A DNA stretch of 64,000 nt, taken from contig OY762007.1 in assembly GCA_963665115.1 (NCBI GenBank), positions 352,001-416,000 of the forward strand. Reading direction: 5' to 3'. Within the stretch, counting starts at the first letter, position 1, and each line of letters starts with the position of its first letter. Origin of the DNA: an uncultured Rivularia sp. Its GTDB lineage: Bacteria > Cyanobacteriota > Cyanobacteriia > Cyanobacteriales > Nostocaceae. The notes under the pieces were generated by a model. It was given only the letters and a program-made list of their open reading frames with translations, was not told where the DNA came from and did not search any database. Made by a program: the position numbers and the translations under genes. This document shows positions 24,147 to 48,244 of the stretch, one piece after another.

Positions 24147-26309
24147 ATGTATAAAAATACTAAAAAAAACTCTTTTGAAAAGTTCAACGCAGCAAAACGT
24201 TTATTAATTAGCCTACCAGTTTTATTACTAACGGCTCCAAATATCGCTTTTGCTCAACCAACTACAGCTTTAAGTTTAAGCGTAACAGTCAACAGCAACC
24301 AGGATGGAAGCATACAGGCTGATGATAAGCTAACATTACGCGAAGCAATTGCCATCGTCAACGGTAATCTATCTGTAGAAAAACTCAGTGCTGCTGAAAA
24401 ATCTTTGGTTTCATCTGGGAATAACCAGTCTCGGATTGAATTTAATCTTGCTCCCGGACAAACTACAATCACCTTAGAAAGCATTCTCCCAGCTTTAACA
24501 AATCCAGGATTGATAGTTGACGGTACCTCTCAACCAGGATACAAAGCCGATAAATCTGCAACCGCAGAAATTGAGATTCCCATTCCAGTTGTAGAAATCA
24601 CTTCCGCTGCCGACAAACAAGTATTTCGCGGTTTAACGGTAGCAGCCGATAATATTACAGTTCAGGGATTGAGTATATATGGGTTTAGTTCAAAACATAC
24701 AGATACAGCTAGCTTACCTCCAGGGGATGTTGTTGTTGTACCCTATCGTTCCGTTTTAATACAAGATAGGGAGACAAGGGGACAAGGAGACGAGGAGAAT
24801 TCTTCTCAGCCACCCAAAAATGTCAACATTAAAAATAACTGGTTGGGTATTACCTCAGAAGAACAAGTTCCTAATAAAACTTCGGCTTTTGGGGTTTCTG
24901 TATTTGATGCAACTGGTACAAATATCAACCGTAACCTGATTGCAAATCATGAAGGTAGCGGAATTATTACTGGAAAATTAGCAGAAAATACTCAAATTCA
25001 ATCAAATATCATCGTTGGTAATGGAATAGCTGGTGTTCCCGATGCAATTAGACTGGAAGGTCGAATTAATAATTCTCAAGTTACTTCAAACTTAATTTGC
25101 GCCAACGACGGCAGCGGAGTGTACTTGTTTAAGCCAGAAGGCTCAGTACAAATACAGTCAAACAATATTAAGTATAACGGTAGACGCTTGCGACGTGCGG
25201 GTGTTTACTTGATGGGTAATAACCATCAGGTAGCTAATAACCAAATCACCAATCAACCAGGTTCCGGAGTTGCGATTACAGCTTATCCCGACAGCAAAGG
25301 AAACGTTGTCAGAGACAACAGCTTTGGCAATATAGAAGGATTGAGTATCGACCTCAACTACAGAAATACTGCCAGCGTCCGCGATTTTCAACGAGGAGAC
25401 GGTCCCAACCCACCGAGAAATTCTGGAAATCGTCGTAAGGATACCGCAAACGGTGCTATCAACGCTCCAGAGTTTCTCAGTTCCGAATTTATTATTATTA
25501 ACGGTAAAGTAAATATTGACGGAAAAGCCGACCCAGGTAGCGAAATTGATATTTATAAAGTAAATCCCAATAGCAGACAGCAAATAGATTTATATCCCGC
25601 ATATTCCGCATTAGGGGAAGTAATTGGCAGAGTTAAAACTGACGAAAAAGGTAGATTCAAAGCCACCTTTACAAACCTGCAACCTGGGGAAATTATTAGT
25701 GCGATCGCCACTCAAAATAAATACGGAACCTCAGAACCAGCAGCGAATGCAATAGTTAAATCAGTTGGTAATTCCGGAATCCAAAATCCACAATCCCCAA
25801 TCCAAAATTTTGAAACCCCCAACTGTACAACCCGTCCGGTAGCACCAACACCAGAACCACCAATTCCTCAACCACCAATTCCAGATCCAATACCCGAACC
25901 ACCCGCACCAATTCGTTTAAGCGTACCTAGAAACGTCCACTTTGCACTAGATAAAGACTTTATCAGTCCCAAAAGTGGAGAAGTTCTAGATAAAATCGCT
26001 GAAGTCATGGAGCAATATCCCAACATAGTCATTGAACTACAAGGACATACCGACTCCCGCGCTAGCGTTGCTTATAACCAAGATTTGGCGAAAAGACGCG
26101 CAACAAACGCGAGAAATTACCTAGTTAAAAGAGGTATCGCACCCGAAAGAATGACCATTCGTTCCTTTGGAGAACGGAAATTACGGACAGAGGAAAATAA
26201 TCGAGTAGATTACGCACGCAACCGTCGAGTTGAAGTATTGTTCTTTGATGTTAGGGGAATTGACATCGAATTTGAGAATCAGGAAAGAGATTTGCAGATA
26301 GAAAAGTAA
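24147..26309 (+). CDS. Right-handed beta-helix protein with Pro linker and C-terminal OmpA domain
   Basis: VNSNQDG..LTLREAI; I.NN.I repeats; VHFALDK..GHTDSRASVAYNQDLAKRRA..RNRRVE. Confidence 0.88.
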   Translation: MYKNTKKNSFEKFNAAKRLLISLPVLLLTAPNIAFAQPTTALSLSVTVNSNQDGSIQADDKLTLREAIAIVNGNLSVEKLSAAEKSLVSSGNNQSRIEFNLAPGQTTITLESILPALTNPGLIVDGTSQPGYKADKSATAEIEIPIPVVEITSAADKQVFRGLTVAADNITVQGLSIYGFSSKHTDTASLPPGDVVVVPYRSVLIQDRETRGQGDEENSSQPPKNVNIKNNWLGITSEEQVPNKTSAFGVSVFDATGTNINRNLIANHEGSGIITGKLAENTQIQSNIIVGNGIAGVPDAIRLEGRINNSQVTSNLICANDGSGVYLFKPEGSVQIQSNNIKYNGRRLRRAGVYLMGNNHQVANNQITNQPGSGVAITAYPDSKGNVVRDNSFGNIEGLSIDLNYRNTASVRDFQRGDGPNPPRNSGNRRKDTANGAINAPEFLSSEFIIINGKVNIDGKADPGSEIDIYKVNPNSRQQIDLYPAYSALGEVIGRVKTDEKGRFKATFTNLQPGEIISAIATQNKYGTSEPAANAIVKSVGNSGIQNPQSPIQNFETPNCTTRPVAPTPEPPIPQPPIPDPIPEPPAPIRLSVPRNVHFALDKDFISPKSGEVLDKIAEVMEQYPNIVIELQGHTDSRASVAYNQDLAKRRATNARNYLVKRGIAPERMTIRSFGERKLRTEENNRVDYARNRRVEVLFFDVRGIDIEFENQERDLQIEK

Positions 26310-26320
26310 TTTCCCCTGAT

Positions 26321-27922
26321 GTAGAGACGTAGCAGTGCTACGTCTCCGGGCAATTTGAACATAACACAGACAACCCCAACAACCCGAACACAACACAGAC
26401 AACACCAACATCTCAAACACAACACAAACAACCCCAGCCGATAAATGCTAATTACCACCATAAATACGGAGACGTAGCACTGCTACGTCTCTACACCAGT
26501 ACTGAAAACGATTTAAAACAACAACACAGACAATCCCTAATAACCCGAACACCAAACAAATAACCCCAACCGATAAATGCTAATTACCACCACTAATGTA
26601 GAGACGTAGCAGTGCTACGTCTCCCGGCAATTTGAACATCACACAGACAACCCCCAACAACCCGAACACCAAACAAACAACCCCAGCCGATAGATGCTAA
26701 CTACCACCACTAATGTAGAGACGTAGCAGTGCTACGTCTCCCGGCAATTTGAACATCACACAGACAACCCCCAATAACCCGAACATCTCAAACACCAAAC
26801 AAACAACCACAGCCGATAGATGCTAACTACAACCATAAATACGGAGACGTAGCACTGCTACGTCTCTACACCAGTACTGAAAACAACTTAAAACATCTGA
26901 TTATGATGCAACCGAAATTCAAAGGTAAATACCGAATTGAATCTACCCGTTTACCAGATAGGGATTATGCTGCTAATGGTTGGTATTTCGTCACTATTTG
27001 TACAAAAAATTGTATTTATCATTTGGGTAATGCGGTTGTTTCTGGTGAGGTACAGCTAACACCAATTGGTGAAATAGCCCAACAATATTTTATTGATATC
27101 CCCAAATATTCTAAACATACCTATATAGACACATATGTAATAATGCCCAATCACGTCCACGGAATTGTGGTTATCGACAAACCTACAGATACTGCAATAT
27201 CACGTCATAAAAATACGGAAGTGGACATTATACAAGGTGAATTTATGTCCCAGATATCCCCAAAACCAGGTTCGTTAAGTACTATTATCCGTTCTTACAA
27301 ATCAGCCGTTACCCGATGGTGTCGTCGCAACAAACATGAATATTTCGCATGGCAAGAAAGATTTTATGAAAGCATTATTCGCGTCGATGATTCCATAGAT
27401 AGAATTCGCCAATACATCATTAATAACCCCGCGAAATGGGAACAACACAAAAACAACCCCCCAGATTTATGGATGTAAAACACCCACCAATAATAAATGT
27501 AGAGACGTAGCACTGCTACGTCTCCCGGCAATTTGAACACAACACAGACAACCCCAGCGACCTAAACCACAACACAAATAACCCCAGCCGATAGATGCTA
27601 ATCACAACCATTAATGTAGAGACGTAGCAGTGCTACGTCTCCCGGCAATTTGAACACAACACAGACAACCCCAGCGACCTAAACCACAACACAGACAACC
27701 CCAACATCTCAAACACAACACAAACAACCCCAGCCGATAAATGCTAACTACAACCCTATATAAGGAGACGTAGCAGTGCTACGTCTCTACACCAGTACTG
27801 AAAACGATTTAAAACAACAACACAGACAATCCCTAATAACCCGAACACCAAACAAACAACCCCAGCCGATAGATGCTAATCACAACCATAAATACGGAGA
27901 CGTAGCACTGCTACGTCTCTAC
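26321..27922. repeat. Tandem REP/BIME-like array of 9 REPs surrounding the RAYT gene
   Basis: GTAGAGACGTAGCA(G/C)TGCTACGTCTC forward at 26321, 26598, 26715, 27499, 27616; reverse (ending CTAC) at 26469, 26844, 27765, 27897; homologous A/C-rich linkers. Confidence 0.9.
26903..27478 (+). CDS. REP-associated tyrosine transposase (RAYT/TnpA-REP, HUH Y1)
   Basis: YFVTICT, MPNHVHGI (HUH), WQERFYE, QYIINNP (catalytic Tyr); flanked by GTAG-REPs. Confidence 0.9.
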   Translation: MMQPKFKGKYRIESTRLPDRDYAANGWYFVTICTKNCIYHLGNAVVSGEVQLTPIGEIAQQYFIDIPKYSKHTYIDTYVIMPNHVHGIVVIDKPTDTAISRHKNTEVDIIQGEFMSQISPKPGSLSTIIRSYKSAVTRWCRRNKHEYFAWQERFYESIIRVDDSIDRIRQYIINNPAKWEQHKNNPPDLWM

Positions 27923-28099
27923 ACCATTGACATCGTATTTTCACGCATTATAAAAATATTTCAATTAGTAATTATACGGAAGTCAAAAACAATAAATAAA
28001 AGTTTTAATGCCAGTGGGAAAGGAACTTTAAACTATCTTTATATTTAAATTTTTAAATCAGCAAAAATAGCACCATTGTAATATTTATCACTCAAAGCT

Positions 28100-29935
28100 A
28101 TGGAATTTATATTTAAACACTTACTTGGCTTATATAGCGCCGAATCTGCAAAAAATAAACCCAAAAACAAGAGATTTTCCCAAAAATTAATTATAAATCT
28201 CGGATATATGGGAGTTTTTCTGTTTCAGTTTTTAATAGCTTCGCCAAAAGTTTTAGCTCAAAGTAACTTTTGCTCCAGCCCTTACAACATGGTTTACTCG
28301 GGGCATTTCCCTAATAGGATTGATGCGATTCACGTTGATAGCGGTGCTTCTGTGCCGTTGACAACATCAAATATTGCTGCTAACACTAACAGTCTCGCTA
28401 GCGACCATGTTAATAACTTAGTTTATTATGCAGAAAACCAGTCTATTTATGCCTGGAGTCCAATTACTAATACACATACTGTGATTACAAGTAATATAAA
28501 AGGCTTCGCTGGCACTAGCAATATTAGCAGTCTTAGTAGTGGTGGTGCAGCTTTTTATAATGGCTCGCTCTACCTGGGTATTGATGAAAATCAACATACT
28601 GGTGGTGCTGAAGTGTATAAAGTTGATTTTGTACCTGCTTCCAATGGTCAGACAGTTCAAAGCGTGACTTCGCTTAATATCGCTAGTTTGATTCCACCTA
28701 GCGATTGGGGGGATCTTAGTATTGATAATAATGGTGTAATGTTAGGTGCTACCCCCGGTGGCTTTTGGACTTATAACCTAAACAACGGTACATACACCTC
28801 TCTTTCGAGTAACCTTCCAGGAGGTCAGCACCAACTAGCTAAAGATGGCCAAGGTCGCCTATGGGCTGTAGTTTACACGCCGACTAAATTCATCTTTCAA
28901 GTTCAGGTTGTTGGTAATAGCATTCAACAAGTAGGTCAAACTATTTCTGTAGATCCTCATGACACTAATGATGCTGCTGAATGTGTAATTGGTGAGTCTA
29001 GTATAGGCGACCGTGTTTGGAATGATGCTAATGAAAATGGCGTGCAAGATGCTGGAGAAGATGGTATTGAGAATGTCACAGTTGACTTGTACTGGGACAT
29101 TAACGGCAATGGTCAAATTGATAATGGTGACGATCCTCTATTAGCAACCCAAACCACAGGTACTAATGGTAATTATGATTTTCCTGACCTAATTTTTGGT
29201 AATTATATTGTTAAAGTTTCTGATACCAATGGGGTGCTTACAAACGCTTCATTGACTAGTGCGTCGGATACCCACAGCGTAAATTTATTACCTGGCACTG
29301 TAGATTATAATGATGCAGACTTTGGTTATAAACTGGCAATTGCCAGTAACCCTGACGTATTAATAGTCAAACGCATCACCGCAATAAACGGCGATCGCAC
29401 TAAAAACCCCAACGACAATACTCCCTTAAATACCTTCGTCGATGATACAGTTTCTGCTCGTAAAGATGATGATAACAATCCCAACTGGCTAGATAATTAC
29501 CTCATTGGTGCCATTGATGCAGGTAAAGTAAAACCCGGTGACGAAATTGAATATACGGTTTACTTCCTTAATGCTGGAAGTAGCGATGGAGAAAACCTGC
29601 GAATATGCGACAGAATTACTCCCGACCAAGATTTTAAATTAAATGCTTACGGTACTGGTAACGACTTGCAATTAAAATTAGACAGCAAGGCTGTAATTAA
29701 TTTAACCAGTGCTTCCGATACTAATGACCGCGCTCAATTAATTCCAACAACTGGTAGTGTTCCAGCTAACTGTAACCTCAAGGGTACAAACGATAGCGGC
29801 ACATTACAAATTGACATTACAGGTACAGGAAATACTACCCAATCCGATTTAAACAGCGTACCCGGTTCTACAGGAAAAGGAACCCCCGATAACTCCTACG
29901 GATTCTTCAGATTTACAACCACCGTCAAACCATAA
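28100..29935 (+). CDS. Adhesin A: signal, Cys-bracketed propeller, SdrD-B, truncated C-terminal DUF11
   Basis: VLA-QSNFC..NDAAEC; SIGDRVWNDANENG; VKRIT..PGDEIEY..ICDRI..YGFFRFTTTVKP*. Confidence 0.8.
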   Translation: MEFIFKHLLGLYSAESAKNKPKNKRFSQKLIINLGYMGVFLFQFLIASPKVLAQSNFCSSPYNMVYSGHFPNRIDAIHVDSGASVPLTTSNIAANTNSLASDHVNNLVYYAENQSIYAWSPITNTHTVITSNIKGFAGTSNISSLSSGGAAFYNGSLYLGIDENQHTGGAEVYKVDFVPASNGQTVQSVTSLNIASLIPPSDWGDLSIDNNGVMLGATPGGFWTYNLNNGTYTSLSSNLPGGQHQLAKDGQGRLWAVVYTPTKFIFQVQVVGNSIQQVGQTISVDPHDTNDAAECVIGESSIGDRVWNDANENGVQDAGEDGIENVTVDLYWDINGNGQIDNGDDPLLATQTTGTNGNYDFPDLIFGNYIVKVSDTNGVLTNASLTSASDTHSVNLLPGTVDYNDADFGYKLAIASNPDVLIVKRITAINGDRTKNPNDNTPLNTFVDDTVSARKDDDNNPNWLDNYLIGAIDAGKVKPGDEIEYTVYFLNAGSSDGENLRICDRITPDQDFKLNAYGTGNDLQLKLDSKAVINLTSASDTNDRAQLIPTTGSVPANCNLKGTNDSGTLQIDITGTGNTTQSDLNSVPGSTGKGTPDNSYGFFRFTTTVKP

Positions 29936-29947
29936 CCCACAACTAAT

Positions 29948-30070
29948 GTAGCGGGGAGACGTAGCAATGCTACGTCTCCCCGCAATGCGAACACAACACA
30001 AACAACCTCAGCCGATAGATCCTAATCGCAACCCTATATACGGAGACGTAGCATTGCGCCCCGTCTCTAC
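29948..30070. repeat. REPIN-like inverted REP pair between adhesins A and B
   Basis: Forward REP variant, linker homologous to the RAYT array, reverse REP ending CTCTAC. Confidence 0.75.
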
Positions 30071-30104
30071 AAAAAAATTATTTTCAATATTGAACAAAAC
30101 ACCC

Positions 30105-32675
30105 ATGCTAAATTCTAAACTGAAATCAAACCTTCCCCGCAAAAATAAACGAAATCGCCGCAATAAACGTATTTACGATTATCGTCCTTTGCTGATGACA
30201 TTTTTACTTACAGGTAGTAACTGGTTGTCAGCATTGCCATTATTAGCCGCCAGTCCGACACCTGGAACGGTAATTGATAACCAAGCAACTGGTAGTTTTA
30301 CTGACCCAAATGACAATAATAACGAAGTACAAATTGAATCAAACGTAGTTCAAGTAGAAGTTGCTGAAGTTGCGGGTATCACTATTTCCCAATCAGCCGT
30401 CCCAGAAGAAGCCCCCAGTGGTGTTAGCGGTGCGGGAGCTAATCAAGGCAATGGTGATATTAACCCCGATGATATTATTTACTTTACTTATAAAATTACT
30501 AACGTTGGTAACGATCCTACACAATTCTTTATTCCTGACGCACCTTCTTCAGTTAACAATGGTAATCTTAACGGAAATATTCAAATTATTGAATATGACC
30601 CCGATGGTTCTGGTGCAACTGCTGCAACTGATTTAAGTGGTTCTCCTATAACTATTCCCAGTGGTGGAATTAGTACAGGAGATGCTGCTGCTTTAGATTT
30701 ACCTAACGGTTCTATTCCCCCTGAAGGTACAGTAACAATTCGCGTTCCCATCAAAGCTAGTTCCACATTGATTGATGGGGATACAGTAACGGTGGTCATG
30801 GGTGATACTAACCCTGTAGGCGGACAAAACCAAGTTTACGCTGCTGGGACCAATGATGTTTATACCCAAGATAATCCAGATGGGACAACGGGGGAAACCA
30901 ATGGGACTCCAATAAATGGAGACGCTACAAATCATCGACAGGAAGCGAGTTTTAGTCAAGAAGTGACAATCGTGGCAAATCCTAGCGGTCCCGTTGTTAC
31001 TACAAACTTTTGCTCCAGTGCTTACAACATGATTTACTCGGGGCATTTCCCTAATAGGATCGATGCGATTCACGTTGATAGCGGTGCTTCTGTGCCGTTG
31101 ACAACATCAAATGTTGCTGCTAACACTAACAGTCTCGCTAGCGACCATGTTAATAACTTAGTTTACTATGCAGAAAACCAGTCTATTTATGCCTGGAGTC
31201 CAATTACTAATACACATACTGTGATTACAAGTAATATAAAAGGCTTCGCTGGCACTAGCAATATTAGCAGTCTTAGTAGTGGTGGTGCAGCTTTTTATAA
31301 TGGCTCGCTCTACCTGGGTATTGATGAAAATCAACATACTGGTGGTGCTGAAGTGTATAAAGTTGATTTTGTACCTGCTTCCAATGGTCAGACAGTTCAA
31401 AGCGTGACTTCGCTTAATATCGCTAGTTTGATTCCACCTAGCGATTGGGGGGATCTTAGTATTGATAATAATGGTGTAATGTTAGGTGCTACCCCCGGTG
31501 GCTTTTGGACTTATAACCTAAACAACGGTACATACACCTCTCTTTCCAATAACCTTCCAGGAGGCCAGCACCAACTAGCTAAAGATGGCCAAGGTCGCCT
31601 ATGGGCTGTAGTTTACACGCCGAATAAATTCATCTTTCAAGTTCAGGTTGTTGGTAATAGCATTCAACAAGTAGGTCAAACTATTTCTGTAGATCCTCAT
31701 GACACTAATGATGCTGCTGAATGTGTAATTGGTGAGTCTAGTATAGGCGACCGTGTTTGGAATGATGCTAATGAAAATGGCGTGCAAGATGCTGGAGAAG
31801 ATGGTATTGAGAATGTCACAGTTGACTTGTACTGGGACATTAACGGCAATGGTCAAATTGATAATGGTGACGATCCTGTATTAGCAACCCAAACCACAGG
31901 TACTGATGGTAATTATGATTTTCCTGACCTAATTTTTGGTAATTATATTGTTAAAGTTTCCGATACCAATGGAGTGCTTACAAACGCTTCATTGACTAGT
32001 GCGTCCGATACCCACAGCGTAAATTTATTACCTGGCACTGTAGATTATAATGATGCAGACTTTGGTTATAAACTGGCAATTGCCAGCAATCCCGATGTCA
32101 TTCTAGTCAAACGCATCACCGCAATAAACGGCGATCGCGATAAAAACCCCAACGACAATACTCCCTTAAATACCTTTGTCGATGATACAGTTTCTGCTCG
32201 TAAAGATGATGATAACAATCCCAACTGGCTAGATAATTACCTTATTGGTGCCATTGATGCAGGTAAAGTAAAACCCGGTGACGAAATTGAATATACGGTT
32301 TACTTCCTCAATGCTGGAAGTAGCGATGGAGAAAACCTGCGAATATGCGACAGAATTACTCCCGACCAAGATTTTAAATTAAATGCTTACGGTACTGGTA
32401 ACGACTTGCAATTAAAATTAGACAGCAAGGCTGTAATTAATTTAACCAGTGCTTCCGATACTAATGACCGCGCTCAATTAATTCCAACAACTGGTAGTGT
32501 TCCAGCTAACTGTAACCTCAAAGCCACCAACGATAACGGCACATTACAAATTGACATTACAGGTACAGGAAATACCACCCAATCTGATTTAACAACCGTA
32601 CCCGGTTCCACAGGAAAAGGAACACCCGATAATTCCTACGGATTCTTCAGATTTACAACCACCGTCAAACCCTAA
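30105..32675 (+). CDS. Adhesin B: donor hairpin, Ig domain, propeller, SdrD-B, truncated DUF11
   Basis: Start by homology to 32868; PGTVIDNQATGSFTD..ESNVVQVEVAEVAGI; 3' part near-identical to adhesin A. Confidence 0.8.
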   Translation: MLNSKLKSNLPRKNKRNRRNKRIYDYRPLLMTFLLTGSNWLSALPLLAASPTPGTVIDNQATGSFTDPNDNNNEVQIESNVVQVEVAEVAGITISQSAVPEEAPSGVSGAGANQGNGDINPDDIIYFTYKITNVGNDPTQFFIPDAPSSVNNGNLNGNIQIIEYDPDGSGATAATDLSGSPITIPSGGISTGDAAALDLPNGSIPPEGTVTIRVPIKASSTLIDGDTVTVVMGDTNPVGGQNQVYAAGTNDVYTQDNPDGTTGETNGTPINGDATNHRQEASFSQEVTIVANPSGPVVTTNFCSSAYNMIYSGHFPNRIDAIHVDSGASVPLTTSNVAANTNSLASDHVNNLVYYAENQSIYAWSPITNTHTVITSNIKGFAGTSNISSLSSGGAAFYNGSLYLGIDENQHTGGAEVYKVDFVPASNGQTVQSVTSLNIASLIPPSDWGDLSIDNNGVMLGATPGGFWTYNLNNGTYTSLSNNLPGGQHQLAKDGQGRLWAVVYTPNKFIFQVQVVGNSIQQVGQTISVDPHDTNDAAECVIGESSIGDRVWNDANENGVQDAGEDGIENVTVDLYWDINGNGQIDNGDDPVLATQTTGTDGNYDFPDLIFGNYIVKVSDTNGVLTNASLTSASDTHSVNLLPGTVDYNDADFGYKLAIASNPDVILVKRITAINGDRDKNPNDNTPLNTFVDDTVSARKDDDNNPNWLDNYLIGAIDAGKVKPGDEIEYTVYFLNAGSSDGENLRICDRITPDQDFKLNAYGTGNDLQLKLDSKAVINLTSASDTNDRAQLIPTTGSVPANCNLKATNDNGTLQIDITGTGNTTQSDLTTVPGSTGKGTPDNSYGFFRFTTTVKP

Positions 32676-32687
32676 CCCACAACTAAT

Positions 32688-32833
32688 GTAGAGACGGGGC
32701 GCAATGCGCCCCGTCTCCCCGCAATGCGAACACAACACAAACAACCCCAGTACCCCAGCCACCCAAACAACCTCAGCCGATAGATCCTAATCACAACCCT
32801 ATATACGGAGACGTAGCAGTGCTACATCTCTAC
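32688..32833. repeat. REPIN-like inverted REP pair between adhesins B and C
   Basis: GTAGAGACGGGGCGCAATGCGCCCCGTCTC ... GAGACGTAGCAGTGCTACATCTCTAC. Confidence 0.75.
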
Positions 32834-32867
32834 AAAAAAATTATTTTAAATATTAAACAAAACACCT

Positions 32868-35800
32868 ATGCTAAATCCTAAATTTAAACCTAACCTACAG
32901 CGCAAGAAACGTATTTACGATTATCGTCCTTTGCTGATGACGTTTTTACTTACAGGTAGTAACTGGTTGTCAGCATTGCCATTGTTAGCCGCTAATTCGA
33001 CACCTGGAACCGTAATTGATAACCAAGCTACTGGTAGTTTCACTGACCCAAACGATAGTAATAACGAAGTACAAATTGAATCAAACGTAGTTCAAGTAGA
33101 AGTTGCTGAAGTTGCGGGTATCACTATTTCCCAATCAGCAATCCCAGAAGAAGCCCCCAGCGGTGTCACTGATGCGGGAGCTAATCAAGGCAATGGTGAT
33201 ATTAATCCCGATGACGTTATTTACTTTACATATAAAATTACTAACGTCGGTAACGACCCTACACAATTCTTTATTCCCGATGCTCCTTCTTCAGTTAATA
33301 ACGGTAGTTTAAACGGAAATATTCAAATTATTGAATATGACCCCGATGGTGCTTCAGCAGTAGATTTAACTAGTGATAATATTACTGTTCCCAGCAACGG
33401 TGATACTACTGGAAGTTTATTAAATGGAGTTGCTAATACTAATGATGGTTCTGTTCCTGTGGGGGGTAGTATTACTATTCGCGTTCCCATTAAAGCTGAT
33501 TCCAACTTAAGTGATGGGGATACGGTAACTGTAATCATGGGTGATACGGGAAGCAATGATAATTCCGCAGCAACGCAAAACCAAGTTTACGCTGTGGGTA
33601 CTAATGATGTTTACACAGAAGATAATCCAAACGGGACAACGGGGGAAACTGATGGGACTCCAATAAATGGAGACGCTACGAATAATCGTCAGGAAGCTAG
33701 TTTCAGTCAGGATGTGACGGTGAGTGCTATTAACACAAACCCATTTTCCTGTGCCAGAGCGTTTTATCAAGTTATTGACAACCAACTCAAAAAACTAGAT
33801 CCACTCACAGGTAATTATCTCAATATAGGTAGTCCGGCACCCGGTCACTACAATGCCGCAGCATATAACTCAATTGACAATTTCATCTACGGCTATGGTC
33901 GTGAGGGTTCGATTGCAGGTCACTTGGTCAAAATTAGCCAAGATGGTGCCTTACAAGACTTGGGAGCGCCGACAAAAATTAAAGGGGTTGGCTCTCTCGA
34001 GAGTGCCCATTCGGGCGATTTTGATAATAGCGGCAATTTGTGGCTGCGTTCGAGTGCTTCGGGAGCGTTTATTTATCGCCTCAATGTCCAAACTAATGAG
34101 TATGAAGGGTTTGCGTTCAGCCAAGATATTGGAAACGTAGCCGACCTTGTGTATATTAACGGCAAGCTATACGGTGCCCAATCTAACAAGCTTTACATTA
34201 TTGACATTACTAATCCGGTTTCTGGCACCACGCTATCAGTGACAACCGCAACTGTTTCTGGATTACCTGCAAGTACTGGTAATCCTAGTTTCTATGGTGC
34301 TGCCTACACAGATATCGCAGACAATTTATATGTTTCTCGTAACACCAACGGCGCGGGCAGTGGAGAACTGTATCAAGTTATTGGCTACGATACGGGAACG
34401 CCCAAGGCGGTCAAACTGGTGGATACTCAGACGACTAACAAAAACGATGGCATGAGCTGCCCGAATGCACTACCACCACTTGACTTGGACTTAGGCGATG
34501 CGCCAGATTCCGGTGCAGGTACAGGAAGCAACAACTACAATACACTTGCGATTGATGAGGGTCCTTTACATATTATTAATAGCAATATTTACTTAGGTAG
34601 TGCTGTGACTGCTGATACTGATGGATTTGGTGACGGCACTGATAATAACGGCGATGCTAGCGATGATGCCAATGATGATGGCGTGCAGTTGAGCAGTGCT
34701 TCCCTGCAAGGTCAGAGTTTGACCGCAGGTCAAACAGTAAACCTAGATATTACAACCGCAGGAAGTGGTAAACTAAGCGTCTGGTTTGACTGGAACCAAG
34801 ACGGTGATTTCGACGATGCTGACGAGAAAGTAGCTACGGATATTGCACCAAGTAGCAATGCAATTTCTCTACCCGTAAACGTACCAGCAACAGCTACCGA
34901 AGGAACTACTTACGCTCGCTTCCGTTATAGTTCGCAAGATGGACTTACACCGACAGGTACAGCCAGCGATGGGGAAGTGGAAGATTATCAAGTTGAAATT
35001 GCAGCAGCACCAACAGTCTTTGACTACGGTGACGCACCGAATGATTTATCTTCAATTGACGGTGATTTAAGTTCCGCTTACCCCACCCTAGATGCGGAAA
35101 ATGGAGCCAAGCATACAATTGACGGTAGTACTTTCCTCGGCTCAGGTGTCAATAACGAAAGCGACGGACAACCCACTTTAAATGCTGACGGTGATACCGA
35201 TGATGGTGTTACCTTCCCCACTCTTGGTAGTAATACCGCATTAGTAGTTGGTCAAAACAACACTATTACTGTGGAAGCTTCCAAAACTGGCGTACTCAAT
35301 GCTTGGGTTGACTGGAACCAAGATGGTGACTGGGACGATCCAGGAGAACAAATCGCTACCAACGAGGCTCTTAGTGCTGGCTCAAATACACTTAACGTTA
35401 ATCCAGGCACAACTACTCCTCATGGTGCTACTTACGCCCGCTTCCGGTTTAGCAGCCAATCTAATTTATCGCCAACGGGAGCAGCCAGCGACGGTGAAGT
35501 GGAAGACTATAAAGTGAACGTTGTTATCCCAGAAATTACTGCTTGTTTAGCACCATTACTGAATGGTGGTTTCGAGTCACCCGCAGTTAATGGCTCAACA
35601 CCAACTCCATTAGAAGTTTTTCAATCAGGACGAATTGTTGCTTATCGAGAATCAGAAGTTGATGCTTGGGCTTATATTTCCAGCAATCCTAATAGTTCAA
35701 AATCAGATCGTTCACCAACTGGTTTTGAACAACGTAACGCCATTGAATTGTGGAGAACTGGCAACTTATTGAATGTACCACCTCACGAAGGTAATCAGTT

Positions 35801-37148
35801 TGCAGAAATTAATGCTTATATTCTTGGTAACTTGCATCAAGATATTATCACCACACCAGGCGTTGTCATGCGATGGCAGTTTGCTCACCGTGGACGCACA
35901 GGTAATGATACTATCCGAATTAAAATCGGAGCACCAGGAGCAACGGTTAACCAAGGAGAATTTACTACAGGCAACACTGAGTGGAAAGTTTATAGTGGTA
36001 CCTATACCGTTCCCGTCGGTCAAACAATTACACGTTTTGAGTTTGAAGCCGTTAGTACAGCCAATGGTGATGCTAGTACAGGTAACTTTATTGATGATAT
36101 CCGTTTCGGCGTAGACTGTAACAACAGCATTAACGGTACGGTTTTCCAAGATTACGGAACAACCACCGATAGCAATACCGGAAATGATGTCCTAGATGTA
36201 GATGAAAGCGGTATCCAAGATGTTGGTATTAGCCTTTATCAAGATGGTGGTGACGGTGTCTTTGGTGATGGAAACGGCAATCCAGGGGGCGATGATACAG
36301 TTGTCGGTAGCCCAGTAGATACCGATAGCGACGGTAACTACAACTTTACAGGACTTATAGCTGGCAACTACTGGGTTGATGTAGATACAGATGATGAGGA
36401 CTTAAAGGGTCGTGCTTATGGTGGTGGTGATGCAGATGCAACTCAGACCGATCCACGTTTGGTTACAATAGTCCCAGGTAACGACCAAACCGTAAACTTC
36501 CCTTTCAATGCCAACAACCCTAATGTTTTATTAATCAAACGCATTACCAAAATCAACGACGGTACCACTACCAACGACGGTGATAACCTCTCAGTTTACA
36601 ACCAAGATAGCTCCAATCCTTACGACGATAATGAATTAGACAATCCCGCACCCGACCCAATCGACACTGACAAATGGCTTGATACCACCTCAGACACAAG
36701 CAGTACCTTCCTCATCGGCGGAATTAACGGTGGTACAGTAAAACCCGATGACGAACTAGAATACACAATTTACTACCTCTCAGCAGGTGACACCGAAGCA
36801 GAAAACGTATTATTTTGCGATCGCGTTCCTGAAAATGTTTCTTTTATCCCCACCAGCTTTAACGGTGAAGCAAATAAAGCAACGGGAGGATTACAAAACG
36901 CGGATAGGGGTATTCAATGGTTAAAAGACGGTAATACAGAATCTTTAACCAATGTCCAAGATGGAGACGTAGCTCAATACTTCCCCCCTGGTGTTGAACC
37001 TTCTACGCTTTATCCAAAAATCAAGTGTGATGGTACAAATACGAATGGTGCGGTTGTCGTGAATTTAGGTAACTTACCTAATGCTACCGCTCCAGGTACG
37101 CCAAATACTTCTTATGGATTTGTTCGTTTCCGAGGAAAGGTGAAGTAG
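32868..37148 (+). CDS. Adhesin C: donor hairpin, Ig, propeller, two GEVED domains, lectin-like domain, SdrD-B, truncated DUF11
   Basis: FSC..NDGMSC; two DGEVEDY; NGGFESP..GNFIDDI; LIKRIT..YGFVRFRGKVK*. Confidence 0.82.
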   Translation: MLNPKFKPNLQRKKRIYDYRPLLMTFLLTGSNWLSALPLLAANSTPGTVIDNQATGSFTDPNDSNNEVQIESNVVQVEVAEVAGITISQSAIPEEAPSGVTDAGANQGNGDINPDDVIYFTYKITNVGNDPTQFFIPDAPSSVNNGSLNGNIQIIEYDPDGASAVDLTSDNITVPSNGDTTGSLLNGVANTNDGSVPVGGSITIRVPIKADSNLSDGDTVTVIMGDTGSNDNSAATQNQVYAVGTNDVYTEDNPNGTTGETDGTPINGDATNNRQEASFSQDVTVSAINTNPFSCARAFYQVIDNQLKKLDPLTGNYLNIGSPAPGHYNAAAYNSIDNFIYGYGREGSIAGHLVKISQDGALQDLGAPTKIKGVGSLESAHSGDFDNSGNLWLRSSASGAFIYRLNVQTNEYEGFAFSQDIGNVADLVYINGKLYGAQSNKLYIIDITNPVSGTTLSVTTATVSGLPASTGNPSFYGAAYTDIADNLYVSRNTNGAGSGELYQVIGYDTGTPKAVKLVDTQTTNKNDGMSCPNALPPLDLDLGDAPDSGAGTGSNNYNTLAIDEGPLHIINSNIYLGSAVTADTDGFGDGTDNNGDASDDANDDGVQLSSASLQGQSLTAGQTVNLDITTAGSGKLSVWFDWNQDGDFDDADEKVATDIAPSSNAISLPVNVPATATEGTTYARFRYSSQDGLTPTGTASDGEVEDYQVEIAAAPTVFDYGDAPNDLSSIDGDLSSAYPTLDAENGAKHTIDGSTFLGSGVNNESDGQPTLNADGDTDDGVTFPTLGSNTALVVGQNNTITVEASKTGVLNAWVDWNQDGDWDDPGEQIATNEALSAGSNTLNVNPGTTTPHGATYARFRFSSQSNLSPTGAASDGEVEDYKVNVVIPEITACLAPLLNGGFESPAVNGSTPTPLEVFQSGRIVAYRESEVDAWAYISSNPNSSKSDRSPTGFEQRNAIELWRTGNLLNVPPHEGNQFAEINAYILGNLHQDIITTPGVVMRWQFAHRGRTGNDTIRIKIGAPGATVNQGEFTTGNTEWKVYSGTYTVPVGQTITRFEFEAVSTANGDASTGNFIDDIRFGVDCNNSINGTVFQDYGTTTDSNTGNDVLDVDESGIQDVGISLYQDGGDGVFGDGNGNPGGDDTVVGSPVDTDSDGNYNFTGLIAGNYWVDVDTDDEDLKGRAYGGGDADATQTDPRLVTIVPGNDQTVNFPFNANNPNVLLIKRITKINDGTTTNDGDNLSVYNQDSSNPYDDNELDNPAPDPIDTDKWLDTTSDTSSTFLIGGINGGTVKPDDELEYTIYYLSAGDTEAENVLFCDRVPENVSFIPTSFNGEANKATGGLQNADRGIQWLKDGNTESLTNVQDGDVAQYFPPGVEPSTLYPKIKCDGTNTNGAVVVNLGNLPNATAPGTPNTSYGFVRFRGKVK

Positions 37149-37359
37149 ACAATGCTGCAACGTGTTTTATCCTATTACCCAAGACGTAGCATTGCTACGT
37201 CTCTACACTGTTTTTCGATTTACCCTCGAAGATAAAAATAACTGTTCCCTATTCCCTTTTGCTAATTAGAATTTTTAACGCTAATCTACTTATGATTTAT
37301 ATTTAATGGTTTTCAGGGGTTGCTACCAAAATCAAACCATTTTATAGTCAATCATCAAA

Positions 37360-39992
37360 GTGAAAAATCTTTACCAACAAATTAAATCGAATCATATTCG
37401 ATACCAGAAAAAGACTCGTAATTTCACTTCTCTTACTTATCACTTAAAAGTATTTCTAGCTCTGGCAATATTCACAACCAGTCCTTTTTATTGGCTGTTA
37501 CCCACCCTTGCCAATACTGCACCGGGAACCACAATTAATAACACTGCTACAGGTTCCTTTGAAGATTCAAACAACCCTGGTACTGTAACAAGCATTGAAT
37601 CTAATACGGTTTCGGTCACAGTTGCCGAAGTTGCGGGTATTACTATTACTCAATCTGCAATCCCAGAAGAAGCCCCCAGCGGTGTCACTGATGCGGGAGC
37701 TAATCAAGATAATGGTGAAATAAACCCAGACGATATTATTTACTTTACTTATAAAATTACTAACGTCGGTAACGACCCCCACACAATTTTTTATTCCTGA
37801 CGCACCTAGTAATATTACCAACGGTAGCTTAAGCGGAGATATTCAAATTATTGAATATGACCCCGATGGTGCTTCGGCAGTAGATTTAACTAGTAATAAT
37901 ATTACAGTTCCTAATAATGGAGCTACCACGGGAACCTTATTAAATGGGGTTGCTAATAGTAATGATGGTTCTGTTCCGGTTGGGGGTAGTATTACAATTC
38001 GCGTTCCCGTTAAAGCTGATTCAAATTCAGCTGATGGGGATAATGTAACTGTAATCATGGGTGATACGGGAAGTAATGATAATTCCGCAGCAACGCAAAA
38101 CCAAGTTTACGCTGTGGGTACTAATGATGTTTATACCCAAGATAATTCAGATGGGACAACGGGGGAAACCAATGGTAATCCAGTTAATGGGGATGCAACC
38201 AATCATCGACAGGAAGCGAGTTTTAGTCAAGAAGTGACAATCGTGGCAAATCCTAGCGGTCCCGTTGTTACTACAAACTTTTGCTCCAGTGCTTACAACA
38301 TGATTTACTCGGGGCATTTCCCTAATAGGATCGATGCGATTCACGTTGATAGCGGTGCTTCTGTGCCGTTGACAACATCAAATATTGCTGCTAACACTAA
38401 CAGTCTCGCTAGCGACCATATTAATAACTTAGTTTACTATGCAGAAAACCAGTCTATTTATGCCTGGAGTCCAATTACTAATACACATACTGTGATTACA
38501 AGTAATATAAAAGGCTTCGCTGGCACTAGCAATATTAGCAGTCTTAGTAGTGGTGGTGCAGCTTTTTATAATGGCTCGCTCTACCTGGGTATTGATGAAA
38601 ATCAACATACTGGTGGTGCTGAAGTTTACAAAGTTGATTTTGTACCTGGTTCCAATGGTCAGACAGTTCAAAGCGTGACTTCGCTTAATATCGCTAGTTT
38701 GATTCCACCTAGCGATTGGGGGGATCTTAGTATTGATAATAATGGTGTAATATTAAGTGCTACCCCCGATGGCTTTTGGACTTATAACCTAAACAACGGT
38801 ACATACACCTCTCTTTCGAGTAACCTTCCAGGAGGTCAGCACCAACTAGCTAAAGATGGCCAAGGTCGCCTATGGGCTGTAGTTTACACGCCGACTAAAT
38901 TCATCTTTCAAGTTCAGGTTGTTGGTAATAGCATTCAACAAGTAGGTCAAACTATTTCTGTAGATCCTCATGACACTAATGATGCTGCTGAATGTGTAAT
39001 TGGTGAGTCTAGTATAGGCGACCGTGTTTGGAATGATGCTAATGAAAATGGCGTGCAAGATGCTGGAGAAGATGGTATTGAGAATGTCACAGTTGACTTG
39101 TACTGGGACATTAACGGCAATGGTCAAATTGATAATGGTGACGATCCTGTATTAGCAACCCAAACCACAGGTACTGATGGTAATTATGATTTTCCTGACC
39201 TAATTTTTGGTAATTATATTGTTAAAGTTTCCGATACCAATGGAGTGCTTACAAACGCTTCATTGACTAGTGCGTCCGATACCCACAGCGTAAATTTATT
39301 ACCTGGCACTGTAGATTATAATGATGCAGACTTTGGTTATAAACTGGCAATTGCCAGCAATCCCGATGTCATTCTAGTCAAACGCATCACCAAGATTAAC
39401 GATAGTACTACTACTAATAATGGTGATAACCTCTTAATTTACAATCAAGAAGAATCTAACCCCTACGACGATAATAAATTAGACAATCCCGCACCCGACC
39501 CCAATCGACACTGACAAATGGCTTGATACCACCTCAGACACAAGCAGTACCTTCCTCATCGGCGGAATTAACGGTGGTACAGTAAAACCCGATGACGAAC
39601 TAGAATATACTATTTACTACCTCTCAGCAGGTGACACCGAAGCAGAAAACGTATTATTTTGCGATCGCGTTCCTGAAAATGTTTCTTTTATCCCCACCAG
39701 CTTTAACGGTGAAGCAAATAAAGCAACGGGAGGATTACAAAACGCGGATAGGGGTATTCAATGGTTAAAAGACGGTAATACAGAATCTTTAACCAATGTC
39801 CAAGATGGAGACGTAGCTCAATACTTCCCCCCTGGTGTTGAACCTTCTACGCTTTATCCCAAAATCAAGTGTGATGGTACAAATACGAATGGTGCGGTTG
39901 TCGTGAATTTAGGTAACTTACCTAATGCTACCGCTCCAGGTACACCAAATACTTCTTATGGATTTGTTCGTTTCCGAGGAAGAGTAAAGTAG
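37360..39992 (+). CDS. Adhesin D, mosaic of B and C modules (apparent +1 frameshifts at 37776-37780 and 39499-39502)
   Basis: Comparison with paralogue C shows one extra C at each site; ends YGFVRFRGRVK*. Confidence 0.75.
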
Positions 39993-40019: not shown

Positions 40020-40445
40020 AAAGACGTAGCAATAGTCCGCCACATTAATTATGAGGGGTAACACATTCGTAGTGGGAGCGTCTCGCTCCCTCGTGACAAG
40101 CAGCGAGCTTTCCGGCTCGCACTCCCGAAACCCCGTAGAATTATCGTGGTTGGGTAATGCTACGTCTTTACTTTGTCAGAATCTACGCAATTGTCACAAT
40201 AACCTACTGGTGCGTGACACTAAAAACCTGATTACTAGATTAAAAATTAGTCAAAGTGTTACAGCAAAGGCAATAAATGGGGATATTATCTACACCCGGA
40301 CACTTGCTACAAGTCGGGGAACCCCTCCGGGTTCAACACTTTGCTTATGTCGGGGAAGCCGTCCACCGCAACTGTGTCACCGCCCAACGCAGTGTCCTCC
40401 CTTTTTGCCTCCTCTATAAGAAAAATGTCAAGTTGCGTAAGTTCT
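40020..40445. repeat. Nested repeat cluster: split REP, MITE and SDR-type hairpins
   Basis: AAGACGTAGCAAT (to 40033) and AATGCTACGTCTTTAC (40156-40171) separated by a copy of the 7903 element; nested hairpins at 40300-40400. Confidence 0.65.
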
Positions 40446-42287: not shown

Positions 42288-42884
42288 ATGAGTAAATATA
42301 TCCCGCTAAGAAAAGCGGTTGAACGGTTGGGATTGCATCCAAACACTTTAAGAAGATATGCGGATAATGGAGAAATCGAGAGTATCAAAAATAAAGCAGG
42401 GCAAAGATTGTACAACGTCGATTCCTACATCAACGGTGCAGCTAGAGCTACTACCATTTGTTACTGTCGAGTCAGTTCCAAAAAGCAAAAAGACGACCTT
42501 CAAAGACAAATCGAATATATGCAATCCCAATACCCGAGTGCAGAAATCATCTTTGATATCGGTTCCGGACTCAACTTTAAAAGAAAAGGATTGCGTTCCA
42601 TACTGGACAGATTATTGCTTGGAGATAAGCTCCAGATTATTGTTGCCTGTAGGGATAGATTATGCCGATTTGGATTTGAGCTTATACAGTATTTGGTCGA
42701 ACAAAACGGTGGACAAATCTTGGTTCTCGACAAAAATGTTCACTGTCCACAAACTGAACTCACAGCCGATATTCTCTCAATTATCCACGTCTTCTCTTGT
42801 AGAATGCACGGACTCAGAAAATATAGTCAAAAAATCAAAGAAGATAAAGATATTCCTGAATCGGCAGCAGAAAGCAATAATTAA
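42288..42884 (+). CDS. tnpA: IS607 serine recombinase TnpA
   Basis: N-terminal HTH; YCRVSS..QKDDLQRQ; DIGSGLNFKRKGL; DRLCRFGFE. Confidence 0.93.
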   Translation: MSKYIPLRKAVERLGLHPNTLRRYADNGEIESIKNKAGQRLYNVDSYINGAARATTICYCRVSSKKQKDDLQRQIEYMQSQYPSAEIIFDIGSGLNFKRKGLRSILDRLLLGDKLQIIVACRDRLCRFGFELIQYLVEQNGGQILVLDKNVHCPQTELTADILSIIHVFSCRMHGLRKYSQKIKEDKDIPESAAESNN

Positions 42885-43936
42885 AAAGTGGTTCGGAGTA
42901 AGTCGGTTTGTTTATAATCAAACTATTGAATATTTGAAGGAACCCGAGAATAAAGCAAATTGGAAGGCGATTAAAACAGGAATTTTAAATAGTTTACCAG
43001 ACTGGTGTTCATGTGTTCCTTATCAAATTAAGTCAATCGCTATTAAAGACGCTTGTCAAGCTGTTAGTAAAGCTAAAAAGGATTATAAGAAGACAGGTAA
43101 ATTTAATAATTGCAGATTTAGGTCAAGAAAAGCGATTATTCAAAGTTGTTATATCCCTAAAAGCGCGATAAATGAAAAAGGAATCTATTACACTAAGTTA
43201 GGACATCTAGAATATGGTGAATCTTTGCCAGAAAATATTTTAGATAGTAGATTAGTATGTGCTTATGGGGATTACTATGTGACTATCCCTATCAATGATA
43301 AGCAGTATAAATCCGATAACCAAGGAAGAGTAGTTGCTTTAGATCCAGGTATTAGAACTTTTCAAACTTTCTTTTCTGAAACTAGTTTTGGTGAAATTGG
43401 TAATGGTGCTAATTTAAAAGTACAGAAATTATGCTTTAAATTAGATGCGCTAGTATCAAAAATAAGTCAAGCTAAATGTAAACAAAAAAGAAGATTAAAA
43501 AAAGCTGCGAATAGACTTCGTTGCAAAATAAAGTCCCTCATTGATGAATTACATAAAAAGACTGCTAAATTTTTGGTAGATAGTTTCGACTTCATCTTAC
43601 TTCCGACATTTGAAACATCACAAATGTCTAAAAAAGCTAAGCGCAGAATTCGTTCTAAATCTGTCCGGCAAATGCTAACTTTGAGCCATTACAAATTCAA
43701 ACAATTTTTAAAACATAAAGCATTTGAATATGGTAAAAAAGTTTTTGATGTTAATGAAGCATACACATCAAAAACCGTAAGTTGGACAGGTGAGATTCTA
43801 CAAAAACTTAGTGGTTCTAAAGTTGTAACTTCTAAAATAGATGGACGTTTCTATGCCTAGAGATTTAAATGGTGCGCGAGGAATTTTTCTTCGTGCATTG
43901 GTTGATACGCCATCTCTTAGAGATTGTATTTGTTAA
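42358..43936 (+). CDS. tnpB: TnpB RNA-guided nuclease with rearranged RuvC (Fanzor-like); apparent +1 T at 43848-43850; start uncertain
   Basis: ALDPGIRTF; ILLPTFET; VNEAYTSKT; after correction DGRSMPRDLNGARGIFLR..CIC*. Confidence 0.85.
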
Positions 43937-47349: not shown

Positions 47350-48228
47350 CTATATTTTCTCAATTTCTTCAATATTTAACCCCGTAGTCTCCACAATTAA
47401 ATTAATATCAATTCCTCTGGCTTTCAAAGATTTAGCGATTTTGATCTGTGCTATTTTTTCCCCTTCTTTCATTCCTTCTTTCCTCCCCCGCAATTCTCCC
47501 GTTACTTCCGCACTTTCTATAATGCTAATTTCATATCTTCTATCTTCGAGATATTTTTGATATGCAGTTCTTTCCGCTGGCGATAAATTTTCAATCTTTA
47601 AATTATCTTTTGCTTGAGCCAATCCTCTGGCTTGAAATTCGTCTTTGATTTCACTATTTTTCAAGAAATATATCCACTCATCTAAACTATCTTTCGCTAC
47701 GTCGTTAAAGTTATTAACTCTTAAAACGTAATATTCTGGAAATATTTCGTAAACTTCTTCAATCTTAAATACCTCTTTCTGTAATTCTGAAGGTTCTAAT
47801 TTATCATTGATGTGAATTCCACAAAAATCTACTTTACCTTGATAAATATAATCCCTTCCTTGTCCCAGAGAAAAATAAACGATATTAATCGAATAAACTT
47901 TTTTTACTTTACCGTAAGCTTCCCCTTTACCAAGATATTCGCTAATTAATGCCGAAACTCCATACAGCATCCGATGAAAATAATCATTTTCTGGGCTGTT
48001 TTGAACTTCAATTAATAAAAATTCATCTTTAGTATTTTTAGCTAAAATATCAACTCTGTTAAGCTTGCTTTCTTCAGTTATTCGATTGCTTTCGCTTTCT
48101 AAAATCGACTCAATAAAGATATCTTCTTTTAATAACTCGCTGATAAAACCTTCTAGAACTACGTAATTAGCTTTATCGCGCAATAGTTTTTTGATTGCCC
48201 AGTCGAAGCGGATATGTGTTCCTGCCAT
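47350..48228 (-). CDS. Rpn-family PD-(D/E)xK nuclease, copy 1
   Basis: RFDWAIKKLL; RVDILAK..IEVQ; (G.KE)n tail; IAKSL..TGL..EEI. Confidence 0.87.
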   Translation of the reverse strand: MAGTHIRFDWAIKKLLRDKANYVVLEGFISELLKEDIFIESILESESNRITEESKLNRVDILAKNTKDEFLLIEVQNSPENDYFHRMLYGVSALISEYLGKGEAYGKVKKVYSINIVYFSLGQGRDYIYQGKVDFCGIHINDKLEPSELQKEVFKIEEVYEIFPEYYVLRVNNFNDVAKDSLDEWIYFLKNSEIKDEFQARGLAQAKDNLKIENLSPAERTAYQKYLEDRRYEISIIESAEVTGELRGRKEGMKEGEKIAQIKIAKSLKARGIDINLIVETTGLNIEEIEKI

Positions 48229-48244
48229 GATAATTTTTGTTTAT

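Follow-up and report, generated by a model that had tools for sequence, protein, structure and literature searches.

Exchange of adhesin cargo between conserved gene ends at a hypervariable fibre locus of Rivularia, probably by homologous recombination and gene conversion

How do neighbouring adhesin-like genes come to carry interchangeable middles between nearly fixed ends, and does a transposase lodged beside them have any part in it? The question is raised by a window of 64,000 nucleotides (positions 352,001 to 416,000 of contig OY762007.1, assembly GCA_963665115.1) from an uncultured Rivularia sp., whose genome is assembled as one contig of 8.69 Mb with 37.9% G+C. Along the window a fibre operon is followed by a Y1 transposase gene amid nine repetitive extragenic palindromes (REPs), four array genes that we call A to D, an IS607-like pair, a fifth paralogue (E) and two Rpn genes. 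The array is hypervariable, and its proteins would be secreted and consist of a signal peptide or leader, a variable cargo and a conserved C-terminal domain. A first-pass annotation of positions 28100 to 39992, made from the letters alone, read the array genes as mosaics formed by recombination or gene conversion, possibly promoted by nicking by the transposase, one of the REP-associated tyrosine transposases (RAYTs). We give odds of about two in three to an exchange of cargo that uses the leader end and a short block opening the tail as places of homologous recombination and conversion, was seeded by one non-homologous join and is filtered by selection for whole domains.

The array genes lie on the forward strand. 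Gene A (28100 to 29935) comprises a signal peptide, a module M and a tail T1, with no leader domain (L), and has the same layout in a relative, G011. Gene B (30105 to 32675, the most likely start being ATG 30105) has a leader Lb, a linker, M and T1, and gene C (32868 to 37148) a leader Lc, a DUF6923 domain, two GEVED domains, further cargo and a tail of another type, T2. In gene D (37360 to 39992) an N-terminus of its own is followed by a C-like L, a B-like L end, M, a T2 start of its own and a T2 homogenised with that of C. Module M, identified by self-comparison and Pfam, is predicted to be an SdrD_B domain behind a head that is propeller-like by conjecture, the head part giving no confident fold. 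It occupies 28265 to 29380 in A, 31005 to 32120 in B, where it is joined on the left to the leader linker without homology, and 38276 to 39391 in D, where it ends at the codons of a KRIT motif.

The threefold, almost unchanged module of about 1.1 kb described in the first pass is borne out: the copies span 1,116 bp and differ at 23 (A-B), 25 (A-D) and 12 (B-D) positions, an identity of 97.8-98.9%, and a genome search found no further copy in the rest of the genome. The period of 2,740 bp between A and B also holds, as a match of 1,671 bp at 97.5% identity with that offset in the self-comparison, and so do the C-terminal types common to A and B (within this tract) and to C and D (94.1% over 641 bp). 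The leader said to be common to B and C is homologous in the two genes but only 82% identical. A single recent tandem duplication of 2,740 bp producing A-B-C was rejected, given 82% identity of the leaders against 97.5% for M-T1. Both switch points annotated in D were recovered: the passage from C-like to B-like sequence falls within 38122 to 38134, and D leaves the module at 39391/39392, straight after the KRIT codons, to continue with about 85 bp of its own sequence.

The differences between the copies are distributed in blocks. At the 30 informative sites of M the odd copy out reads AAAABDADDDDDDBBBBAAAAAAAAAAAAA along the module, which makes 7 runs (p≈1e-5, 200,000 shuffles), and such clustering points to repeated gene conversion. 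The C and D tails differ at 30 positions over their initial 125 bp and at 7 over the 515 bp that follow, and in the A/B tract 14 differences lie in the 154 bp beside the REP as against 5 in 418 bp. Variants are thus shared among the paralogues in tracts, as expected of a conversion-diversified array. As judged from the alignments, such a pattern is that left by several conversion tracts that overlap, and a single duplication would not give it.

Repeats of this similarity might also arise from misassembly or over-polishing of noisy long reads, which would create extra copies and junctions; the first-pass annotation had itself named an assembly chimera as the result that would overturn its interpretation. 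We compared the assembly with contigs, not reads, from three short-read runs of one study, which hold about 90% of the sampled sequence words and may be the assembly's own source. A further run, X1 (share 0.05), forms no part of the evidence. The module contig had a depth of 489, 157 and 628 in the three runs against single-copy values of about 200, 52-69 and 200-230, respectively, that is, about 2.4-3 times as much. Contigs specific to D (38104 to 38230 and 39362 to 39501) and to A (27899 to 28351) were at single-copy depth, and from position 39391 both the T1 and the T2 continuation were present. On the other hand, no contig bridges the whole module between unique flanks, the phasing of the module resting on the assembly, and the assembly does carry homopolymer errors. 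The extra C near 37776 and near 39499, which shift the frame of D, is absent from the short-read contigs of all three runs; these two frameshifts are homopolymer assembly errors, and gene D is therefore likely intact, at 876 aa. A chimera or a collapsed repeat was rejected on depth and junction contigs, and we consider the artefact, which is largely refuted, extremely improbable. Four frames in the window are broken by one surplus base in a short run of C (about 13848, 37776, 39499 and about 46590), and since two of the four breaks are assembly errors, apparent pseudogenes in this assembly need caution.

A comparison of strains had been proposed as a further check. In 26 loci fetched from 24 genomes of relatives we found conserved ends and swapped middles. 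Tail T2 has a match in 25 of the 27 genomes of the genus, and a locus carries from 1 to 6 tail-bearing genes in the stretch that runs from OmpA to the flank downstream. Genus-wide, 58 tail-bearing genes fall into 9 T clusters, and the 53 of them with a cargo longer than 150 aa into 23 cargo clusters. Among 144 cross-genome pairs with T identity of at least 75%, 92 share less than 30% of their cargo and 40 share at least 70%, counts to which frameshifted open reading frames in some assemblies add noise. In one relative, G001, the ends resemble those of A, B and D (81-88% DNA identity) and enclose unrelated middles, and its slot 2 matches Lb at 85% DNA identity while holding other cargo; G011 has gene A and one C-like gene carrying other cargo, and nothing more of the array. 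At the level of sequence comparison, cargo has been replaced between conserved orthologous ends across the genus. The earlier proposal that recombination or gene conversion swaps cargo between fixed ends is supported both within this genome and across the genus. A recent copy between tail-bearing genes (at least 250 bp at 90% identity or more) was found in none of the 26 related loci, where fragmented assemblies could hide cases; the three-way copy seen here would then be the product of an episodic process.

Other repeats and conserved stretches were noted. Intragenic domain duplications of about 1 kb (82-87% identity) occur in array genes of L021/L022 and L023 (G007, G003), and a direct repeat of 5.4 kb at 99.5% identity, with no REP nearby, lies at G000:C1:3,205,546-3,217,581. 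The promoter region at 27930 to 28100 is about 76-87% conserved in relatives (L025/L026, L029, L021/L022, L036) despite the differing gene behind it.

In 10 hand-picked pairs of genes the steps in identity fall mostly at an NPxVLLVKRIT motif or at the leader end; in one example the identity drops from 66-88% to 22-38% at residue 486, the start of T. Over 57 genes the Arg codon of KRIT is CGC in 29, CGG in 9, AGA in 8, CGT in 7, CGA in 3 and AGG in 1. Synonymous variation of this kind indicates a block of homology, and the KRIT block was rejected as a site-specific recombination site, its codons being biased but not invariant. The HIP1 element (GCGATCGC), which has a density of about 0.3 per kb in the genome, is found at 29391 and 32131, 10 nt past the junction of module and T1 in A and B. 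It was rejected as a crossover site, as it stands 10 nt inside T1 only and is not common to T2. An integron- or shufflon-like system is not indicated either, for there is no invariant recombination site and the REPs lie away from the junctions.

The following course of events would account for these data. Module M would first have been present in gene A, and one microhomology-mediated or illegitimate join would have attached M-T1 to the end of a second leader allele, which created B and with it the 2,740-bp period. Copying of M from B to D would have followed, through crossovers at 38122-38134 in the shared leader end and within the block of about 40 bp around NPxVLLVKRIT. Later conversion tracts would have homogenised parts of A, B and D and of the C and D tails, and selection for in-frame, whole-domain products would leave the junctions at domain borders.

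A history of horizontal transfer would look similar in part. The leader alleles of B, C and D would have come from different strains, imported between the OmpA and Rpn flanks and brought together by unequal crossing-over, and the near-identical copies of M would reflect recent sharing in a population and not copying inside one chromosome. In different relatives one and the same T1 spacer precedes Lb and Lc, which therefore look like alleles of one slot that now stand in tandem; imported patches could account for the blocks specific to D (6 sites) and to B (4 sites) within M, and the locus of the relatives contains insertion sequences (IS) and unrelated genes. However, M occurs at high identity in only one of 30 relatives (G011, 85%), and the sharing by B and D of M at 98.9% together with the exact linker is best fitted by intragenomic copying. 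We find this history quite improbable; it is, moreover, a variant of exchange by homologous recombination and invokes no alternative enzyme.

The fixity of the ends may be explained by the structure of the fibre. In T, K10 and D90 are invariant in 52 of 52 sequences, and N11 of the L hairpin is found in at least 90% of 22 sequences, the DUF7925 subunit of relatives included. Passages of PMC12617251 give the triad of the CLIPPER domain as Lys715, Asp748 and Asn806. TIGR01451 scored above its cutoff for B and C, and a model of T (predicted local distance difference test, pLDDT, 87) superposed on residues 18-110 of 123 of the CLIPPER structure 9IFR (Z 6.2, root-mean-square deviation 2.6, 91 aligned). 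Foldseek with T alone gave no match at E ≤0.001. In a single-chain model of mature B (mean pLDDT 66.5, predicted TM-score 0.56) L and T were confident and the module head had no confident fold; the Foldseek matches of this model were to pilin and SdrD domains, with low TM-scores. The model speaks neither for nor against a contact between T and the L of another subunit. Because T aligns only as far as residue 110 of the 123 of 9IFR and the CLIPPER triad includes Asn806, T likely lacks the strand that bears the Asn. From the models, T is likely a CLIPPER/DUF11 fold minus its last strand or strands, which would keep the ends fixed, and the products of the array genes are likely the tip and the minor subunits of a surface fibre of split-CLIPPER/DUF11 type. 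Gene A is likely to specify the tip type, since a subunit that lacks L would close the fibre off; both ends are present in B, C and D. The resemblance to the CLIPPER/DUF11 domain (PF01345, PDB 9IFR) lies in the TIGR01451-like sequence of T and L, the middling fold match of T, and the conserved Lys and Asp of T with the candidate Asn of the L hairpin. In contrast to the known bonds, intramolecular in the available text of PMC12617251, any bond here would be intermolecular, the domain appearing to be split between two proteins.

We then considered the transposase. The RAYT gene (26903 to 27478, forward strand) encodes a TnpA-REP-like Y1 transposase with HxH and Tyr motifs (Pfam Y1_Tnp 25 bits, cutoff 23; NF047646 50.6 bits, below the cutoff of 80) and is the only close copy found in the genome. 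To its left lie five GTAG-type REPs in repeat units of 117-145 bp (26319 to 26870) and to its right four more (27497 to 27925). A single-copy Y1/HUH gene amid GTAG palindromes, at the same extragenic site in relatives, with some 330 family copies in the genome, corresponds to the REPtron as described in passages of PMC3333891, PMC8266576, PMC3733652 and 10.1101/2021.07.10.451892. The exact count is 331 copies at up to 3 mismatches, with none in 2 Mb of shuffled sequence, and REPs are present in 83 of the 1,822 short tandem spacers of the genome (crude gene calls). Unlike the REPtrons of that literature, this one is inside a fibre operon and heads a hypervariable array, and in the same passages a role of REPtrons in shuffling coding sequence is not established.

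REPs had been placed at every gene boundary of the array. Cores are indeed present at 27898, 29957, 30044, 32692, 32809 and 37182, the last belonging to a single REP (37182 to 37202) that begins 34 bp past the stop of C, but behind D only a degenerate left arm is left (40022 to 40031). The REP ahead of A is part of the REPtron. The A-B spacer (29936 to 30104) and the B-C spacer (32676 to 32867), each with two REPs, are copies of one ancestral spacer from T1 to L, also found in G011, G001, G018 and G031, and the array spacers derive from the REPtron flank unit. The REPs would thus be mostly inherited passengers of the adjacent REPtron, possibly serving as 3' hairpins of the mRNA. In the A-B spacer, positions 29948-29985 hold a REP variant with rewritten arms and a perfect stem of 16 bp, and in the B-C spacer 32688-32720, its arms rewritten as well, is the only fully palindromic GGGCGCA/TGCGCCC variant of the genome. 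The hybrid REP at 30044 was rejected as a crossover scar, the hybrid form occurring 9 times in the genome. A cut site between C and T at a junction is uninformative as a RAYT signature, 64% of 9-nt windows holding CT or AG.

Could the RAYT nevertheless prime the exchange? The REPtron would nick single-stranded DNA at the REP spacers or away from them, conversion or rolling-circle copying would resolve the intermediates at domain borders, and the host would retain the RAYT because it diversifies the fibre adhesins locally. Orthologues of the RAYT (67-88% identity) lie between the OmpA gene and the array, at its head, in 12 relatives, and remnants in 2 more. In 80 loci found by OmpA alignment and queried with the RAYT of the window, a match was obtained in 14 of the 26 loci with an OmpA identity of at least 60% and in 0 of the 54 more distant ones. 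In two loci outside the genus, L064 and L067, a RAYT (73/50% and 51% identity) also lies between OmpA and the first tail gene. According to passages of PMC3333891 and PMC8266576, the E. coli TnpA-REP cleaves between C and T, also at a distance, and sequestering of flanking genes has been proposed. On the other hand, every junction of the mosaic falls inside a gene, at a distance of 346-1,073 bp from the nearest REP, and the least homogenised stretch is that beside the REP; given cleavage at a distance, the junction-REP spacing alone has no power to exclude the RAYT. A recent copy between genes was found in not one of the 12 fetched relatives whose RAYT is full, and in G031, whose array is the largest (6 T genes), the RAYT is reduced to a remnant of 31 aa. 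The association of RAYT and array probably goes back to one insertion in one clade. A fixed extragenic position is normal for RAYTs according to passages of 10.1101/2021.07.10.451892. The authors of the closest precedent, the prochlorosin arrays considered below, added after submission that they saw no strong evidence for or against causation (10.1101/2020.03.09.984088). We regard priming by the RAYT as unlikely on balance.

Cargo is replaced much faster at the loci of the RAYT clade than elsewhere. For pairs of loci with an OmpA identity of at least 75%, the heads of the first gene match in 4 of 94 pairs at the RAYT locus and in 21 of 21 pairs at a second operon of this genus, one without a RAYT; in other cyanobacteria 89 of 144 pairs match. 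Second operons that are orthologous across the genus keep their cargo. Further barrel genes with tail-domain matches nearby are at G000:C1:959,600-969,500, where an OmpA paralogue (50% identity) is also present and no RAYT match was found, and at G000:C1:3,276,500-3,282,200. This contrast in turnover is confounded, for the arrays of the RAYT clade are somewhat larger (at least 2 tail genes within 10 kb in 5 of 10 full loci as against 6 of 30), tail genes with a leader were found only there (3 of 27 as against 0 of 53), and more paralogues offer more substrate to ordinary recombination.

Several of our results weigh against exchange by homologous recombination, or against the fibre model that accompanies it. 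No usable homology is present at the join on the left of M in B, the sole exception among junctions otherwise lying in blocks of shared sequence, and this makes one non-homologous step necessary. Of the pairs with T identity of at least 70%, 3 of 30 share cargo inside the RAYT clade versus 49 of 50 outside it (75 of 81 genes kept), and a frameshift-proof DNA version of the first-gene comparison gave 6 of 120 pairs versus 21 of 21 at the RAYT-less operon. REPs stand behind 22 of the 58 T genes and behind 13 of 224 other genes of the same loci, though kin are not independent in this count. The retention of cargo at RAYT-less loci and the excess of REPs behind T genes are what priming by the RAYT would predict, and homologous recombination alone does not account for a cargo turnover so much faster here than at homologous operons. 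As to the fibre, the match of T to 9IFR is middling (Z <8) amid many pilin domains at Z 6-8, and the supply of the missing Asn strand by the L hairpin of the next subunit would need a contact that is putative. The nicking by the RAYT put forward in the first pass is a hypothesis with correlational support from turnover; against it, the junctions are far from REPs, homogenisation is least beside the REP and the spacers are inherited.

Several of the genes around the array are conserved in relatives. In the fibre operon, on the forward strand, a DUF7925 protein (13806 to 16226; Pfam DUF7925), with an N-terminal L domain as in B, C and D and a position kept in the genus, is likely the major fibre subunit; the 5' end of its gene is probably broken by a homopolymer error near 13848, outside the coverage of the short-read contigs. 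A protein with DUF11 and SdrD_B domains (17486 to 19051; Pfam) is kept in relatives. The 1,659-aa protein that follows (19048 to 24027) has an Ig-like domain (Pfam Big_1/Invasin_D3 below cutoff) and a long conserved C-terminal region, is predicted to be a large outer-membrane barrel, and has its gene ahead of that for OmpA in almost every long locus. The protein with beta-helix and OmpA domains (24147 to 26309; Pfam and relatives) forms the fixed left flank of the variable array. Between D and E is the pair of IS607-like resolvase and TnpB (42288-43860), in which position 43848 has one base fewer in two of the three short-read runs. Gene E (44486 to 47285, forward strand), beyond the span of the first pass, is a fifth tail-bearing paralogue with a different T type, probably split near 46590 by a homopolymer error outside the coverage of the short-read contigs. 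Two Rpn/PDDEXK_2 genes on the reverse strand (47350 to 49147) form the right flank of the array in many relatives. They are 99% identical to each other over the first 240 aa, no other close copies were found in the genome, and the pairs of relatives have 85-95% DNA identity.

Segmental gene conversion between conserved ends is reportedly a source of diversity in other adhesin and antigen genes, such as babA of Helicobacter pylori and Kgp of Porphyromonas gingivalis. The conversion-diversified antigen loci msp2 of Anaplasma and vmp/vlsE of Borrelia, as covered by passages of PMC4534519, have in common with this array conserved 5' and 3' blocks, exchanged middles, patchwork tracts and surface products. 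Unlike loci of the msp2/vlsE/pilE type, the array has neither a silent donor library nor a single expression site: there is no other copy of M in the genome, all paralogues look intact in an operon-like array, and A to D are full-length once homopolymer errors are set aside. It further differs from the msp2/vlsE type in the units exchanged, which are entire unrelated domains, 0.3-1 kb and more in size, and in its host, a free-living cyanobacterium not subject to immune selection. The array works like a conversion-diversified surface antigen locus, not like a programmed donor/expression-site or site-specific cassette system. The prochlorosin arrays of marine picocyanobacteria are likewise linked to TnpA-REP in a family of leaders and variable cargo, and recombination was proposed for them; there, however, TnpA-REP copies are many, REPs absent and variation of the indel (insertion or deletion) type, as against one RAYT, true REPs and whole-domain swaps here (10.1101/2020.03.09.984088). 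In the literature covered, a scope with most subscription papers outside it, we found neither this operon's array described nor any account of adhesin shuffling driven by a RAYT, and the array is not described in the available text of PMC3733652, PMC6329079 and PMC13297417.

The locus is a real, well-delimited site of hypervariable adhesin cargo, and its link to the RAYT, although unproven, is testable. Even without the RAYT it offers a natural plug-and-play display scaffold. In this one genus 9 tail types carry 23 types of cargo, the tail domain opens with a block at which crossovers recur, and one adhesin head has recently spread to three subunits. What makes bacteria retain RAYTs is an open question, and passages of 10.1101/2021.07.10.451892 argue that a benefit to the host is required. 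The locus is a case in which this can be tested, with a built-in control in the paralogous fibre operons of one genus, one with a REPtron and rapid cargo replacement and one with no REPtron and stable cargo. That a REP transposase, domesticated and fixed in one heterocystous clade at the head of a fibre operon, nicks the REP spacers and so drives the exchange of cargo between plug-and-socket subunits seems to us rather improbable. If true, it would give the organism a combinatorial repertoire of adhesins, and the RAYT a host benefit that would explain its retention.

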